Origin: an uncultured Eubacteriales bacterium | GTDB taxonomy: Bacteria; Bacillota; Clostridia; TANB77; CAG-508 | NCBI GenBank assembly: GCA_949840345.1 | Contig: CATKWX010000008.1 | Coordinates: 1,801-65,800 of the forward strand | Reading direction: 5' to 3' | Length of the DNA: 64,000 nucleotides | Shown here: one piece after another, positions 620-34,113 of the stretch | How positions within the stretch are numbered: the first letter of the stretch is position 1 | How the letters are laid out: each line of letters starts with the position of its first letter | Made by a program: the position numbers and the translations under genes | Notes under the pieces: model-generated | Databases searched by the model: none | What the model was told of the DNA's origin: nothing | Seen by the model: the letters and a program-made list of their open reading frames with translations, nothing else

Positions 620-784
620 ATACAATAAAAGAATAAAATTCCTCGGCTACATTACAAAATTTAAGAAATTCTAAATTGATTTTATGGCACCCTTTCAAGG
701 CAAGCTTGAACATTTTCCATAAAATCTGCTTAAGAATTTCTAAAATTTTCCATTTGCATTCGTAATTTTATTCCTTTATTGTAT
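620..784 (+). mobile_element. MITE-like ~165 bp element with 21 bp terminal inverted repeats (ATACAATAAAAGAATAAAATT / AATTTTATTCCTTTATTGTAT) and a long internal imperfect hairpin; copy 1 of 3.
   Basis: The 5' and 3' ends are reverse complements with 1 mismatch; related copies lie at ~11149-11325 and 34035-34113. Confidence 0.6.
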
Positions 785-822
785 TTTTTATTCTATGCAA
801 ACAAATATATTTTAAATAGTAT

Positions 823-858
823 AGGGAACGACCTTCTAAAGTCGTTCCCTATAAGTTA
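823..858. terminator. Perfect GC-rich palindrome TAGGGAACGAC-N8-GTCGTTCCCTA between the convergent dockerin gene and leuS. Probable bidirectional terminator and a member of the TAGGG...CCC palindromic repeat family.
   Basis: 11 bp perfect inverted repeat seen directly; the same arms recur at 4467, 39785, 47233, 52071 and 53378. Confidence 0.6.
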
Positions 859-3264
859 TTTCACTACAATATTATAAATTTTATTTTTTACATATATTTC
901 TTTTACAATTGTTTTTCCTTCTAATAGTGTTGCTACTTCTTTTTTTACTATTTCTTTTACAGCTGATTCTTCTGCGTCTAATGGAATTTTTACTGTTGCT
1001 TTTACTTTTCCATTGAATTGAACAGGAATTTCTATTTCATCATCAATTGTTTTTGCTTCATCATATTTTGGCCAAGTAGAATCTGATATTGTATGACCTG
1101 TGTTTAGTAATTCATATAATTCCTCTGTTATATGTGGTGCAAATGGATTTAGCAATTCTAAGAAAGTTTTAAATTCTGCTTTGTTTATTCTTTTTAGCTT
1201 ATAAAATTCATTAATCATTGTCATAAATGTTGCAATAGAAGTATTAAACTTCATTTCCTCAATATCGCTAGAAACTTTTTTAATAGCCTTATGCATCATT
1301 TTTTCAAATTCAGGAGAGTAAGAATCTCCATCTACTAATATTTCTTGTAGGTTCCAAACTCTTTCTAGGAATTTATAGCATCCTCTAATACTATCCATAG
1401 ACCAAGGTGCTGATTGATCAAATGGTCCTATAAACATTTCATAAACTCTAAAGGTATCTGCACCGAATTCATTAACTATATCGTCTGGATTTACAACATT
1501 ACCCCTAGATTTAGACATCTTTTCTCCATTACTTCCTAAAATCATACCATGTGATGTACGTTTTTGATAAGGTTCTTTTGTTGGAACTACACCTATATCG
1601 TATAAAAATTTATGCCAAAATCTTGAATATAGTAAGTGTAGAGTAGTGTGCTCCATACCACCGTTATACCAATCTACAGGAGACCAATATTCTAGTGCTT
1701 CCTTTGAAGCTAATGCGTTATCATTATGTGGGTCCATATAACGTAAGAAATACCAAGAAGATCCAGCCCATTGAGGCATTGTATCTGTTTCTCTTTTAGC
1801 ACTTCCACCACAGTGTGGACAAGTTGTGTTAATCCAATCTGTTTGTTTTGCTAAAGGAGATTCTCCATTTTCACCTGGTTCAAAGTCTTTTATATCTGGT
1901 AAAACAAGAGGTAATTCTTTTTCATCTAATGACACCCAACCACAATTTTGGCAATATACCATTGGAATTGGTTCACCCCAGTATCTTTGGCGAGAAAATA
2001 CCCAGTCACGAAGTTTGTAGTTTACTTTTCTTTTTGCAATTCCTTTTTCTTCTAGATAGTTTATACAAGTTTTAATAGCTTCTTTTACTCCTAATCCATT
2101 TAAGAATCCAGAATTAATCATTGTTCCAGAATATACATCTGTATGAGGTTTTTCCTGTACATTTTCGCCACCTGATACAACTTCTATTATTGGTAAATTA
2201 AATTTCTTTGCAAAATCCCAGTCTCTATCGTCATGGGCAGGAACAGCCATAATAGCACCAGTTCCATATGTAATTAATACATAATCTGAAATCCAAATAG
2301 GAATTTCTTTTCCTGTTAATGGATTTATTGCCGTTATTCCTTTTAATTCTACACCAGTTTTTTCTTTAGAAAGTTCAGCTCTTTCAAAATCTGATTTTAA
2401 TTTTGCTTGATTTTGATATTCCTTTACGTCATTTAAATTAGTAATTTTATCTTCAAATTTTTGAATCATAGGATGCTCTGGTGCGATAACCATATAAGTT
2501 GCACCAAATAAAGTGTCAGGTCTTGTTGTATATACAGTAAGTTCCTCTCCTTCAATTCCTGCAAGTTTAAACTTAACTTCAGCACCTTCGCTTCTACCAA
2601 TCCAATTTTTTTGTTGTAATTTAATTTTTTCTAAGAAATCTATATCGTCTAAATCGTTTATAAGTCTTTCAGCATATTCTGTAATTTTTAGCATCCATTG
2701 ACTTTTTTCCTTTTGAACAACAGGACTTCCGCATCTTTCGCAAACACCATTAACAACTTCTTCGTTTGCTAAACCTACTTTGCAACCTGTACAATAGTTT
2801 ATAGGCATAGTTGTTTTATATGCTAAACCGTGTTTAAATAATTGAATAAAAATCCATTGAGTCCATTTATAATAATTTGGGTCTGTTGTATTTATTTCAC
2901 GAGACCAGTCAAAAGAAAATCCTAGAGCCTTTAATTGCTCTCTAAAATGATCTACATTTTGTTTTGTAATTATACTTGGATGAACTTTATTTTTTATAGC
3001 GTAGTTTTCAGCTGGAAGACCGAAAGCATCAAATCCAATAGGGTATAAAACGTTAAATCCTTCTAATCTTTTCTTTCTTGCAATGATATCAAGTGCTGTA
3101 TAGCTACGAGGATGACCAACGTGGAGTCCTTGTCCTGATGGATATGGAAATTCTATTAATCCATACCACTTCTTCATAGAATAATCATTTTTTGCATTAA
3201 AAGTTCCTTCTTTTTCCCATTTTTGTTGCCATTTTTTTTCTATCTCTTTGAAATTATAAGACAT
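856..3264 (-). CDS. leuS: Leucyl-tRNA synthetase (class I aaRS; HVGH and KMSKS motifs).
   Basis: 802 aa ORF with 'HVGHPRSY' and 'KMSKSRGN' motifs and the LeuS editing-domain architecture. Confidence 0.95.
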
Positions 3265-3420
3265 AAGGCATCCTCCTTGTTTTAAAAAATAATGTAAACA
3301 TTATACTACAAAAATTAAATATAGTCTAGGGAAATGGGCAAATTAATTATTCTTTTAAAAAACATATTGCAAATACTTTAGGAGTGCAGGCTAACGCCCT
3401 AATGTACATATCTAATCAAA

Positions 3421-31990: not shown

Positions 31991-32001
31991 GAGGAACACA
32001 A

Positions 32002-34008
32002 ATGAAGTTAAAATTGAGAGAAAAATATAATAATTTAAGTCTATCAACAAAAGTATCACTATTTTTCAGTTTAATAGCAGGAGTAGTATTTATTCTACTA
32101 TACAATGTATTACCAATTTTGTTAAACTACCCGCCAGATACAATTAATACGGAATTCGATAGAAGTGTTTCAATTACATATTATGCCTTTCAGTGGCTAG
32201 CTATAGCAGTTTCAATAATAGCTATAGTAGTTGTATATTTTAAGCTTTCATTAAAAAATCTAGATAGATGGTGGAAAAATAAAGATTACAAAAAAGATAC
32301 TGTATTAAAAATACGTAGAAAATGTTCAGTATTTCCATACCAAACATATATGATTATTGAGATTTTTCCAATTTTAATAACAATATTAATACTTTCTATA
32401 ACAGGAAGTCATCCAGAAATATTAATATTCAAAATTGGAACTATAGTACTTAGTTTTTCTACATTAGTAGGTGGAGTTCTTTTAATAGTTATTAATAAAT
32501 TACTATATCCATTTTTAGTAGAAACTTCAAATCATTTAAAAATAAAGAAAACTAATAAACTATTATCCTTAAAGGTAAAATTGTTAATTCAATTATTTCC
32601 GGGTATTTTAATTACAGCACTATTAGTTTCATTAATTGGTTATTCTACACTAACAAGAGAAAAAGGAAACTTATTAAATGACTACTATAAAGTATCTTTA
32701 AATAATGCAATTGAAGATAATAAAGAACATATAATAGAAAATATACAAAGTATAGATTTCTCAAGTTACTTAATGAATAATACAGATTTCTTCTTTATCG
32801 AGTATCCAGATGGAACTGTTAAAACAAGCAATGGAAGTGAATTAGGTTCATTTTTTATAAAATATATGCATGACTTATCTCCAACGCACGAAAATAGAGT
32901 TTATGATTCATATACAATAGATGCACAAGGTGTTATAAAAACAATAGAATACCAAAATCAACAATATACAATAGGAATATATTTTGAAATATTATCATTT
33001 GAAACCTTCTTCTTCATCCTATTATGGTCATTAGTTTTATTTATATTTAACTTAATAATATTAATGTATGTTACACGTTCAGTACAAAAAGATATAGAAA
33101 TGGTTGTTGATGGAATGAATAATATCATAGCAGATCCATCTAAAATAACAGATTCCAAATTACCAATTACATCAAATGATATATTAGGAGACCTAAGTGT
33201 ATCTTTTAATAGCATACAAGAATTAACAAAAAATAACATAGAACAAATTCACGCAAATCAAGATATATTAGTAGAACGTGAGCGTCTAGCTTCTTTAGGA
33301 CAAATGGTTGGTGGAATTGCACATAACTTAAAAACACCAATAATGTCAATTTCAGGTGCAGCAGAAGGTTTAACAGACTTAATAAAAGAATATGATTCTT
33401 CAATTGGAGATAAAGATGTAACAGATGAAGACCACCATGACATAGCAAAAGATATGCAAGTGTGGGTAGACAAACTAAAAAATTATGCAGAATATATGTC
33501 TGATGTTATTACAGCAGTAAAAGGGCAAGCGGTTACTTTGGCAGAAGAGCAATCTGTAGATTTTACCATAGGAGAGCTTGTTAAACGTATAAATATATTA
33601 ATGAAGCACGAATTAAAAAATGCATTAGTCACACTAAACACATATATGCATATAGATGAGAAAATTGAATTAAAAGGAAATATTAATAGCTTGGTACAAG
33701 TTATTAATAATATGATATCAAATGCAATACAAAGCTATAATGGAAAACCAGATGAAAAGATAGATATGACAATATATGGGGAAGACAGAAATGTGGTTAT
33801 AAAAATTACAGATTACGGTTCAGGACTTCCAAAAGTAGTGCAAGATAAGTTATTTAAAGAAATGATAACAACAAAAGGAAAAAACGGAACAGGTTTAGGG
33901 CTATTTATGTCATATTCAAATATACGTGCACACTTTAATGGAAACATTACATTTGAAACAAAAGAAGGAAAGGGAACAACATTTTATATATCATTGCCAT
34001 TGGAATAA
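32002..34008 (+). CDS. Membrane sensor histidine kinase (multi-TM N-terminal domain; HisKA 'HNLKTP'; HATPase_c G-boxes).
   Basis: About 8 predicted TM helices, then 'IAHNLKTPIMSISGAAEGL' and 'GTGLGLFMS'. Confidence 0.8.
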   Translation: MKLKLREKYNNLSLSTKVSLFFSLIAGVVFILLYNVLPILLNYPPDTINTEFDRSVSITYYAFQWLAIAVSIIAIVVVYFKLSLKNLDRWWKNKDYKKDTVLKIRRKCSVFPYQTYMIIEIFPILITILILSITGSHPEILIFKIGTIVLSFSTLVGGVLLIVINKLLYPFLVETSNHLKIKKTNKLLSLKVKLLIQLFPGILITALLVSLIGYSTLTREKGNLLNDYYKVSLNNAIEDNKEHIIENIQSIDFSSYLMNNTDFFFIEYPDGTVKTSNGSELGSFFIKYMHDLSPTHENRVYDSYTIDAQGVIKTIEYQNQQYTIGIYFEILSFETFFFILLWSLVLFIFNLIILMYVTRSVQKDIEMVVDGMNNIIADPSKITDSKLPITSNDILGDLSVSFNSIQELTKNNIEQIHANQDILVERERLASLGQMVGGIAHNLKTPIMSISGAAEGLTDLIKEYDSSIGDKDVTDEDHHDIAKDMQVWVDKLKNYAEYMSDVITAVKGQAVTLAEEQSVDFTIGELVKRINILMKHELKNALVTLNTYMHIDEKIELKGNINSLVQVINNMISNAIQSYNGKPDEKIDMTIYGEDRNVVIKITDYGSGLPKVVQDKLFKEMITTKGKNGTGLGLFMSYSNIRAHFNGNITFETKEGKGTTFYISLPLE

Positions 34009-34034
34009 ATTTTAATAATTGTAATATAAAAATA

Positions 34035-34113
34035 TAATAAAAGAATAAAAATATTCGGATACATTACAAAATTTAAAAAATTCTAATTTGATTTTATGGC
34101 ACCCTTTCAATAA
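34035..34113 (+). mobile_element. MITE copy 3: the 5' half only, truncated and fused to palindromic repeats.
   Basis: Matches the first ~78 bp of the MITE including the 5' TIR; diverges into GACGAGCAATGCTCGCCCCTAC. Confidence 0.5.

Follow-up and report, generated by a model that had tools for sequence, protein, structure and literature searches.

What is an AT-rich palindromic repeat of almost 200 bp that recurs three times within 64 kb of a clostridial genome, and how did it come to lie there? The stretch that raises this question, hereafter called the window, comprises 64,000 nucleotides from an uncultured Eubacteriales bacterium (contig CATKWX010000008.1, positions 1,801 to 65,800). An initial annotation, made from the letters of this DNA, had proposed a new MITE (miniature inverted-repeat transposable element), present in three copies that we refer to as copies 1, 2 and 3 (Table 1). 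This idea proved largely right, the repeat being short, non-coding, multi-copy and bounded by inverted-repeat ends. We consider it likely that the element is a non-autonomous, non-coding, AT-rich palindromic MITE-like mobile repeat of ~172–198 bp that belongs to a large family in Clostridia.

Three palindromic copies and their relatives

With copy 1 as the query, BLASTN detected copy 2 over 178 nt (88.8% identity, E = 9e-61) and copy 3 over 81–103 nt (86–91% identity, E = 1e-28), and no further match at E < 1e-3 in the 64 kb of the window. When the window was scanned without filters, a covariance model built for the core of the family found the same three matches and no fourth. It scored copy 1 at 98.8 bits on the minus strand versus 50.3 bits on the plus strand, and copy 3 at 22.5 bits as a partial match. 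The strand with the best family-model score and the most stable fold is called the S strand below; for the window copies it is the minus strand, and the initial annotation had described the plus strand. The three repeats lie where they had been placed (E of 1e-60 and 1e-28), and all of them have the same orientation, as had also been reported. Their flanks show no relation to one another. Their siting had been given as gene ends or divergent promoters. Copy 1 is found where leuS and the gene of a dockerin protein converge, copy 2 between the divergent mgtA and a small open reading frame (ORF), and copy 3 between the tandem genes of a histidine kinase (HK) and its response regulator (RR). Rfam returned no match in the window at the gathering score, and at E values up to 10 only generic hairpin noise.

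When aligned with its own reverse complement by BLASTN, copy 1 matches at 73% across its entire length (604–801). Its ends, ATACAATAAAAGAATAAAATT and AATTTTATTCCTTTATTGTAT, are complementary at 20 of 21 positions, a claim of the initial annotation that can be read directly from the copy. Computed with RNA parameters, the predicted fold of copy 1 pairs from end to end, with −50.5 kcal/mol on the plus strand and −58.9 kcal/mol on the minus strand; the corresponding values for the two strands of copy 2 are −36 and −46 kcal/mol. Against shuffled sequences, the folds of these two copies reach z-scores of −5.6 to −8.5. Each full copy is one continuous imperfect palindrome of ~172–198 bp. The earlier picture of a ~165-bp element with 21-bp terminal inverted repeats (TIRs) and a separate inner hairpin therefore has to be amended: the inverted ends are present and the inner hairpin appears in the folds, but the whole forms a single hairpin of 172–198 bp.

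The search for relatives was carried beyond the window. Searched as an exact pattern, 23 nt of the left stem were found at 13 sites in metagenome-assembled genomes (MAGs) of uncultured Clostridia, with 7 in MAG CAOKHH01, and a gapped pattern across both loop sequences of the core identified at least 120 metagenome loci. The further copies that had been predicted for related genomes thus exist, at least 7 of them in a single MAG. All metagenome figures given here for clusters, subfamilies and copies rest on the matches listed from these loci. At 75% identity, the 102 distinct copies among them that have full context form 35 clusters. Where the record names give a source, it is the human gut, apart from one Alpine shrew sample. 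The metagenome pattern forced a match to the loops, and since the core is itself the search pattern, the loop conservation among these matches stems partly from the design of the search. The MAG pattern included just three bases of the left loop, and the MAG matches carry the same loops although the pattern did not demand them.

Plasmid, phage and viral collections contained no match to the element. Contigs from other samples break inside it, a behaviour expected of repeats. The gene context of the copies is ++ in 27 cases, −− in 18, convergent in 15 and divergent in 10, and the orientation of the element relative to the neighbouring genes is approximately random, as expected for insertions. 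No description of the family was found in the searchable literature, and it apparently represents a large, undescribed family of uncultured gut and rumen Clostridia.

Could the three copies reflect chance similarity, or a local segmental duplication limited to the window, as the initial annotation had allowed? Nothing but the AT-rich composition of the window (28.6% GC) points in this direction. The E values of 1e-60 and 1e-28, the unrelated flanks and the more than 130 related copies found elsewhere refute such an origin, and we assign it practically no probability.

Insertion polymorphism and the case for mobility

To follow the element through orthologous sites, relatives with 72–100% protein identity were compared at all three window loci (designated below by L numbers), and at each of these the element is missing from orthologous sites in some relatives, in line with the mobility implied by the MITE proposal. 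The mgtA site is empty in L139, L140 and L142, whose MgtA proteins are 91%, 86% and 80% identical, and in L137 (98%) it holds the first 38 nt of the element, followed by a unit resembling repetitive extragenic palindromic (REP) sequences. At the leuS site, L144, with a virtually identical leuS, has lost the inner 131 nt and kept the outer arms, and L145, L146 and L147 (94%, 93% and 91%) are empty. The HK–RR site carries a full-length copy in the ortholog from MAG CAOKHH01 (L012), as opposed to half a copy in the window, and is empty in L148–L150 (genomes at 87% and 72%). A search of 82 kb of these orthologous loci gave no family match. In addition, a variant copy is present in L007 and L008 at a position that is free of the element in the syntenic region of the window. 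The three window loci and their relatives fit an insertion-polymorphic mobile repeat.

These comparisons also bear on the view that the copies are bidirectional terminators or mRNA-stabilising hairpins of the host, duplicated by ordinary recombination and not mobile. Copies are intergenic, many lie just after gene ends, and their arms are A-rich at the 5′ side and T-rich at the 3′ side on both strands, all of which would suit such a function. However, the stems are ~90 bp long and AT-rich, and they lack a GC-rich stem beside a free T tract. Divergent genes flank ten of the copies, and copy 2 is located upstream of mgtA. Moreover, the element is missing at orthologous sites, and the orthologs L147 and L148 use short, ordinary terminators. 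We regard a host terminator as a very unlikely explanation.

At copy 2, the 172-bp insert is flanked by two exact copies (9/9) of TGTAATACA, and the empty mgtA site in L139 has a single related 9-mer, TGTAATATA (in mgtA orientation), at the corresponding place. MITEs have been defined as elements of 50–800 bp with TIRs of at least 10–15 bp and duplications of 2–10 bp that encode no transposase (Nucleic Acids Res 2024, PMC11602168), and their bacterial representatives have been reviewed (Delihas 2011, PMC3184786; PMC10969869). The repeat studied here is non-coding and measures 172–198 bp. Apart from the 20/21 match between the ends of copy 1, inverted repetition extends over the whole element, and the TIRs of one of the clusters, cluster 34, extend over 45 nt. 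It is present in three copies per 64 kb in the window and in at least 7 exact-pattern matches in MAG CAOKHH01, and all three window sites show presence and absence. In the mechanism that we propose, a transposase supplied in trans and acting on the ends would insert the copies, and the insertion of copy 2 would have left the 9-bp duplication. The complementarity of the hairpin would subsequently be kept by selection or by template switching from arm to arm, and the element would then be eroded by deletions and by the insertion of REP-like units.

Several observations weigh against a MITE-like mobile repeat. The window encodes neither a transposase nor an insertion sequence (IS) with matching ends, and no transposase or matching-end IS recurs within 4 kb of ~130 copies. 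No orphan arm pairs 0.7–3 kb apart were detected in ~1 Mb of loci. The 9-mer TGTAATACA is nearly palindromic and could for this reason be an extension of the TIR or part of an inverted repeat. Copies 1 and 3 showed no clear direct duplication, and neither did the ends of cluster 34. Of the target-site duplications that the initial annotation had suggested looking for, there is thus one candidate, the 9-bp direct repeat of copy 2, to which a single related 9-mer corresponds at the empty L139 site. Between the filled and empty states of the leuS and HK–RR sites, sequence has been replaced instead of being cleanly inserted, which is why clean target duplications were not obtained for these two copies. 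The best-conserved part of the family is its centre, which is atypical for MITEs, although ascertainment contributes to this pattern. A plain double-strand transposon gives no explanation for the strand asymmetry described in the next section. Finally, the majority of related copies stem from metagenomes assembled from short reads, in which palindromes can be mis-assembled: the very long palindrome of L116 ends exactly at the contig end and is probably a fold-back mis-assembly, and L028 is a short contig with a chimeric look.

Two candidate features were examined and discarded. The only gene families that recur near the ~130 copies encode histidine kinases, response regulators and ABC ATPases; these are common paralogs found at approximately background frequency, and an enrichment of a linked gene family was therefore rejected. 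Very long palindromes, with arms of up to 250 nt, were discounted, as they correspond to the probable fold-back in L116, to the chimeric-looking L028 and, in cluster 20, to arms that are flanking REP-like units.

Table 1. Coordinates of the repeat copies and of associated features in the window.
Feature	Position	Strand	Remarks
Copy 1, full length	604..801	−	Core 655–752; imperfect palindrome over entire length
Copy 2, full length	11154..11325	−	Core 11189–11286
Copy 3, left (plus-strand) half only	34023..34110	−	Stops at hairpin apex
Left 9-bp direct repeat TGTAATACA beside copy 2	11145..11153		Candidate target-site duplication
Right 9-bp direct repeat TGTAATACA beside copy 2	11326..11334		
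GC-rich REP-like doublet	34111..34200		Two GTAGGGG-headed hairpins, inverted around ACATATTGCAAAC
REP-like or terminator hairpin TATAGGGAACGACC...GGTCGTTCCCTATA	820..853	+	Between leuS and copy 1
mgtA, magnesium-translocating P-type ATPase	8502..11114	−	TIGR01524; ribosome-binding site (RBS) AGGAG at 11122–11126

The conserved apex and its strand asymmetry

All subfamilies have in common a conserved apex of ~75–95 nt. Read on the plus strand, one stem of the apex is AGAAATTCT / AGAATTTCT and another (A)TTTTATGG / CCATAAAA(T), and an asymmetric internal loop has the fixed sequence CACCCTTYC opposite GAACnnTTT. The tip is a stem-loop whose sequence is free to vary but which is always paired. For 50 of 52 distinct apical segments, a stem of four or more pairs is predicted; the apical stems include CAC/GTG, CAT/ATG, CGCG/CGCG, CAAG/CTTG and GTTTCC/GGAAAT, and the loops are varied. 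Across 59 diverse cores, 96% of the cells are paired, and compensatory (two-sided) changes occur in 12 of 19 pairs. None of 500 shuffles reached any of the observed measures, and slid controls paired to at most 55%.

The apex occurs in lengths of 36, 37, 38 and 39 nt, without a 3-nt periodicity, and no copy is located inside an ORF, which together mark the element as non-coding. A small peptide encoded in the apex was rejected, as the reading frame is not maintained. Readings of the internal loop as a sigma-54 −24 box (TGGCAC), or as a k-turn or loop-E motif, were dropped when the respective partner motifs proved to be missing on direct reading.

Outside the apex, the outer arms diverge among the ~35 subfamilies, yet they remain complementary inside each copy. 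In cluster 23, even the outermost ~15–20 nt are copy-specific, but they match between the two arms of one copy. The data fit both selection for pairing and template switching from arm to arm as the source of this complementarity within copies. Copy-specific inverted flanks do not constitute a general rule, as they were confined to cluster 33 and to some copies of clusters 10 and 23.

At least three unrelated kinds of outer arm enclose the same core, and each kind also occurs without it. The arms of cluster 33 form a 90-nt core-less hairpin at L007:7438–7530, and at the same locus in L008, from which the 116-nt core is missing; this hairpin is embedded in a perfect, copy-specific inverted repeat of 17–18 nt (CCAATAATAACGTTTAAA / TTTAAACGTTATTATCGG). 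The cluster-34 elements, which measure 330 bp and contain the conserved core, have clear 45-nt TIRs (GAGACAAGGGGACGGAG...). TIRs of this type, 30 nt in length (GAGACAAGGGGACGGAGCTTTTGTCTTAGG), also delimit a 109-bp core-less palindrome at L139:707–815 (GCA_947632145.1). A gene for a large serine recombinase is followed there by a small ORF, and the palindrome lies ~30 nt downstream of this ORF. In cluster 20, the outer arms are REP-like GGGGTCGGTTCC units. The stand-alone occurrence of these arms implies that the core-bearing unit lies repeatedly at the centre of other palindromic repeats. Either the core unit tends to land in palindrome centres, or the core-less forms arise by hairpin deletion. 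Because the core-less boundaries differ between L144 and L007, deletion is favoured at least in part. For the same two forms (L144 and L007:7438–7530), the different boundaries led us to reject a fixed inner mobile unit.

The two strands of the element are not equivalent. Among the matches listed, 99 of 102 copies, and 33 of 33 subfamilies, have their more stable fold on the strand opposite to the window plus strand. The advantage of this S strand amounts to 5–18 kcal/mol, of which ~4 kcal/mol come from outside the conserved core, and the family model yields ~99 bits for it versus ~50 for the other strand. An excess of G·U wobble pairs was rejected as the cause, with 170 G·U against 212 A·C. 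The asymmetry instead results from non-complementary positions that are purine opposite purine on the S strand: outer-arm mismatches on this strand comprise 465 purine–purine cases versus 120, and 28 of 29 subfamilies agree. As the orientation data show, the asymmetry is not inherited from host transcription or from replication skew.

Taken together, the conservation of the apex and the strand bias suggest that the hairpin tip has a second role at the level of a single strand, be it DNA or RNA. Mobilisation could use the tip as a recognition structure, or MITEs with different ends could carry it as a passenger RNA module. Framed as an alternative, the tip would be a strand-specific module that either guides insertion, through its structure, into the tips of other hairpins and palindromic repeats or is a selected passenger RNA of several unrelated MITE scaffolds in gut Clostridia genomes. 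We think this possible but not probable; in its favour are the core shared by at least three kinds of arm, the invariant loop beside a covarying stem, and the purine-loaded strand.

A separate, rival reading is a structured non-coding RNA (ncRNA). In that case the apex would act as a small RNA or as a cis-acting RNA module made from the purine-rich strand (minus in the window), and the copies would be paralogous RNA genes or the RNA a hitch-hiker on a MITE. The invariant asymmetric internal loop, the covarying stems and the variable apical stem count in favour of an RNA, and the fold and score advantage of the minus strand in all 33 subfamilies, with its purine-rich unpaired positions, agrees with this. 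Some subfamilies also have apical loops of the GNRA type (GAGA, GAAA) on the S strand, and copy 2 would put the S strand into the 5′ leader of mgtA. On the other side, the S strand has no excess of G·U over A·C (the 170 versus 212 given above), and no recognisable conserved promoter was seen. The orientation is near random, with the non-S strand being sense more often (110 versus 83; 42 versus 29). Rfam gave no match even at E values up to 10, and the apical loops are not conserved. Furthermore, covariation is equally expected of a DNA palindrome with homogenised arms. We consider an ncRNA unlikely.

The same strand preference could be that of a single-stranded DNA structure serving as the site of a structure-specific enzyme for recombination, priming or nicking (comparable to the attC sites of integrons, the single-strand origins, sso, of rolling-circle plasmids, or REP/RAYT systems), with spreading into hairpin tips. 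One strand is consistently favoured, the apex conserves structure rather than sequence, and the outer arms exist as core-less palindromes (L007:7438–7530, L139:707–815 and the REP-like GGGGTCGGTTCC units), in keeping with such a site. The copies have no candidate enzyme gene linked to them, however, and no attC R-box was recognised, nor was CS-6 (TAGCGT) seen in the apical loops listed. The copies are single and chromosomal, and do not occur in cassette arrays or on plasmids, consistent with the lack of matches in the plasmid, phage and viral collections. The core-less forms may equally be deletion products, given the different boundaries in L144 and L007. We judge a single-stranded DNA site to be improbable, and retain the MITE-like mobile repeat as the preferred reading.

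Neighbouring sequences and known repeat systems

The ATPase gene next to copy 2 encodes a genuine MgtA (TIGR01524, 992 bits compared to a cut-off of 610.75). Copy 2 is located ~20 nt upstream of the mgtA RBS, with its S strand as the sense strand. The initial annotation had it occupying the place of an M-box riboswitch. While the gene is indeed mgtA, neither the window nor the mgtA loci of the orthologs L137, L139, L140 and L142 contain an M-box (RF00380) or any other Rfam family. Since four orthologs, three of them element-free, have none, no M-box was displaced by the element. Upstream of mgtA, sequence blocks within 11330–11460 of the window (ATAAAATACAAATTTTAGGAG, CTATGCTGTCTCG...TAAGGAGATAACATAAGTTACCATAATTATA) are conserved in orthologs with and without the element (L137/L139/L140), and are possible promoter or leader signals. 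As the element lies downstream of these blocks, it is probably transcribed within the mgtA leader.

GC-rich REP-like units are abundant in the window. The hexamer GTAGGG occurs at 28 sites between 4467 and 63222 (such as 7568, 34161, 40409, 47150, 53370 and 62022), compared to ~7 expected from composition, and 27 of these sites are on the plus strand. Many of them head GC-rich REP-like hairpins, often after ACATATTGCAAAC, and an inverted pair at 34115–34190 has the look of a REPIN doublet. The doublet next to copy 3 (Table 1) replaced the right half of this copy and ~15 nt of its flank, and a single REP-like unit replaced most of the mgtA-site copy in L137. Such units also lie ~20–35 nt from copy 1 and from the copies in L004, L006 and L124; given their density, proximity alone proves little. 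The two independent truncations support an interplay of the element with the GC-rich palindromes. It had earlier been proposed on the basis of copy 3, which stops at the doublet, and L137 now provides the second case.

Other features of the window were noted in passing. The RR/HD-domain gene after copy 3 (34305–35360) appears frameshifted, with the ATG at 34305 out of frame with ORF 34479–35360. Its ortholog is one gene of 351 amino acids in L150 and is split in L148 and L149; the window gene is either a pseudogene or reflects a sequence error in the MAG. A gene for a GH94 glycoside phosphorylase (42184–46228) is split into ORFs 42184–45345 and 45602–46228, ~250 nt apart, which divides the catalytic domain and suggests an interruption or a frameshift. 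Two clustered regularly interspaced short palindromic repeat (CRISPR) arrays, at 14555–15590 and 25436–27293, flank a gene block at ~15915–25245; they contain ~16 and ~28 repeats of ~30 nt (GTATTAATTTAAATATAGTAGAATGTAAAT, and a related repeat in opposite orientation). A purine-rich leader motif, GTGAATAATGAATAGTGAAGAGTACAAAATTCTTCGAATTTTGA..., is found at 5667–5701, 47175–47250, 51355–51430, 53409–53474, 62038–62113 and 63258–63306. It forms a small hairpin, several copies end just before an RBS and start codon, and it may constitute another repeat or regulatory leader family. Two 65-nt terminator-like repeats that are 86% identical (11679–11743 and 12514–12578) flank a KilA-N domain gene at 11903–12511. 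A MinE-domain gene (58693–59358) contains three tandem 78-nt repeats at 59039–59285, which encode a repeated acidic segment.

If the element is the mobile repeat that we take it to be, uncultured Clostridia of the gut and rumen contain a widespread repeat family that has so far gone undescribed, one that breaks short-read assemblies and offers markers of strain-level variation. It would also put hairpins of −36 to −59 kcal/mol, as calculated for the two full copies, into gene leaders such as that of mgtA. Its shared, strand-biased tip could indicate a new structure-specific mobilisation mechanism or an RNA module spread by MITEs.

Several known systems resemble the element in part. The Correia elements of Neisseria (NEMIS/CREE) and the ERIC/IRU sequences of enterobacteria are imperfect palindromes over their whole length of 100–170 bp, are intergenic and occur in either orientation. 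When transcribed, they can form long hairpins, and where they lie in 5′ leaders or at 3′ ends they can alter the fate of the mRNA. Correia elements have defined TIRs of 26 bp, duplicate TA and contain an IHF site. The element shares with both families the whole-length imperfect palindrome that folds into a long hairpin, but it has no sequence relation to them and is found in another host phylum. To our knowledge, a conserved asymmetric apical loop with a covarying tip has not been described for Correia elements.

The intergenic repeats RUP and BOX, from Streptococcus pneumoniae, and bcr1, from the Bacillus cereus group, measure 100–160 bp, have inverted repeats at their ends and are predicted to form stable hairpins as RNA. 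Two of them, RUP and bcr1, count as MITEs: RUP has ends in common with an IS630-type element and duplicates TA, and bcr1 has a TTTAT-type target. Like these, the element is an intergenic Firmicute repeat with inverted ends, but it shares no sequence with RUP and bcr1; no counterpart to the partner IS of RUP or to the bcr1 target was found for it. In contrast to Correia, ERIC, RUP and bcr1 repeats, its asymmetric apex is conserved across subfamilies that have different ends.

REPs are GC-rich sequences of 20–40 nt with a GTAG head, and REPs and REPINs are mobilised by RAYT transposases; GTAG-headed REP families are best known from Proteobacteria. The element resembles them in being palindromic and intergenic, and REPs act as single-strand hairpins. 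It differs, however, in its length of ~190 nt, its AT-richness and the lack of a GTAG head, and it is the neighbouring GC-rich units that fit the description of REPs. The attC and ssoA sites function in one folded DNA strand, with conserved stems and unpaired bases and a terminal structure that is variable in sequence and in length; attC sites lie in cassette arrays beside an integrase, and sso sites on rolling-circle plasmids. The apex of the element likewise combines conserved stems and unpaired bases with a variable tip. In contrast to these sites, its copies are dispersed singly in chromosomes, outside any cassette array or plasmid context, and have diverse loops in which the signature motifs (RS_B and CS-6, TAGCGT) were not seen.

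The closest likeness is to MITEs, with which the element has in common that it is small, non-coding, intergenic and multi-copy, with inverted ends, insertion polymorphism and, at one copy, a direct repeat. MITE families are normally defined by their ends, whereas this family is conserved at its centre, and the same core occurs between at least two unrelated types of ends, the AT-rich arms of the window copies and the GAGACAAGGGGACGGAG-type TIRs of cluster 34.

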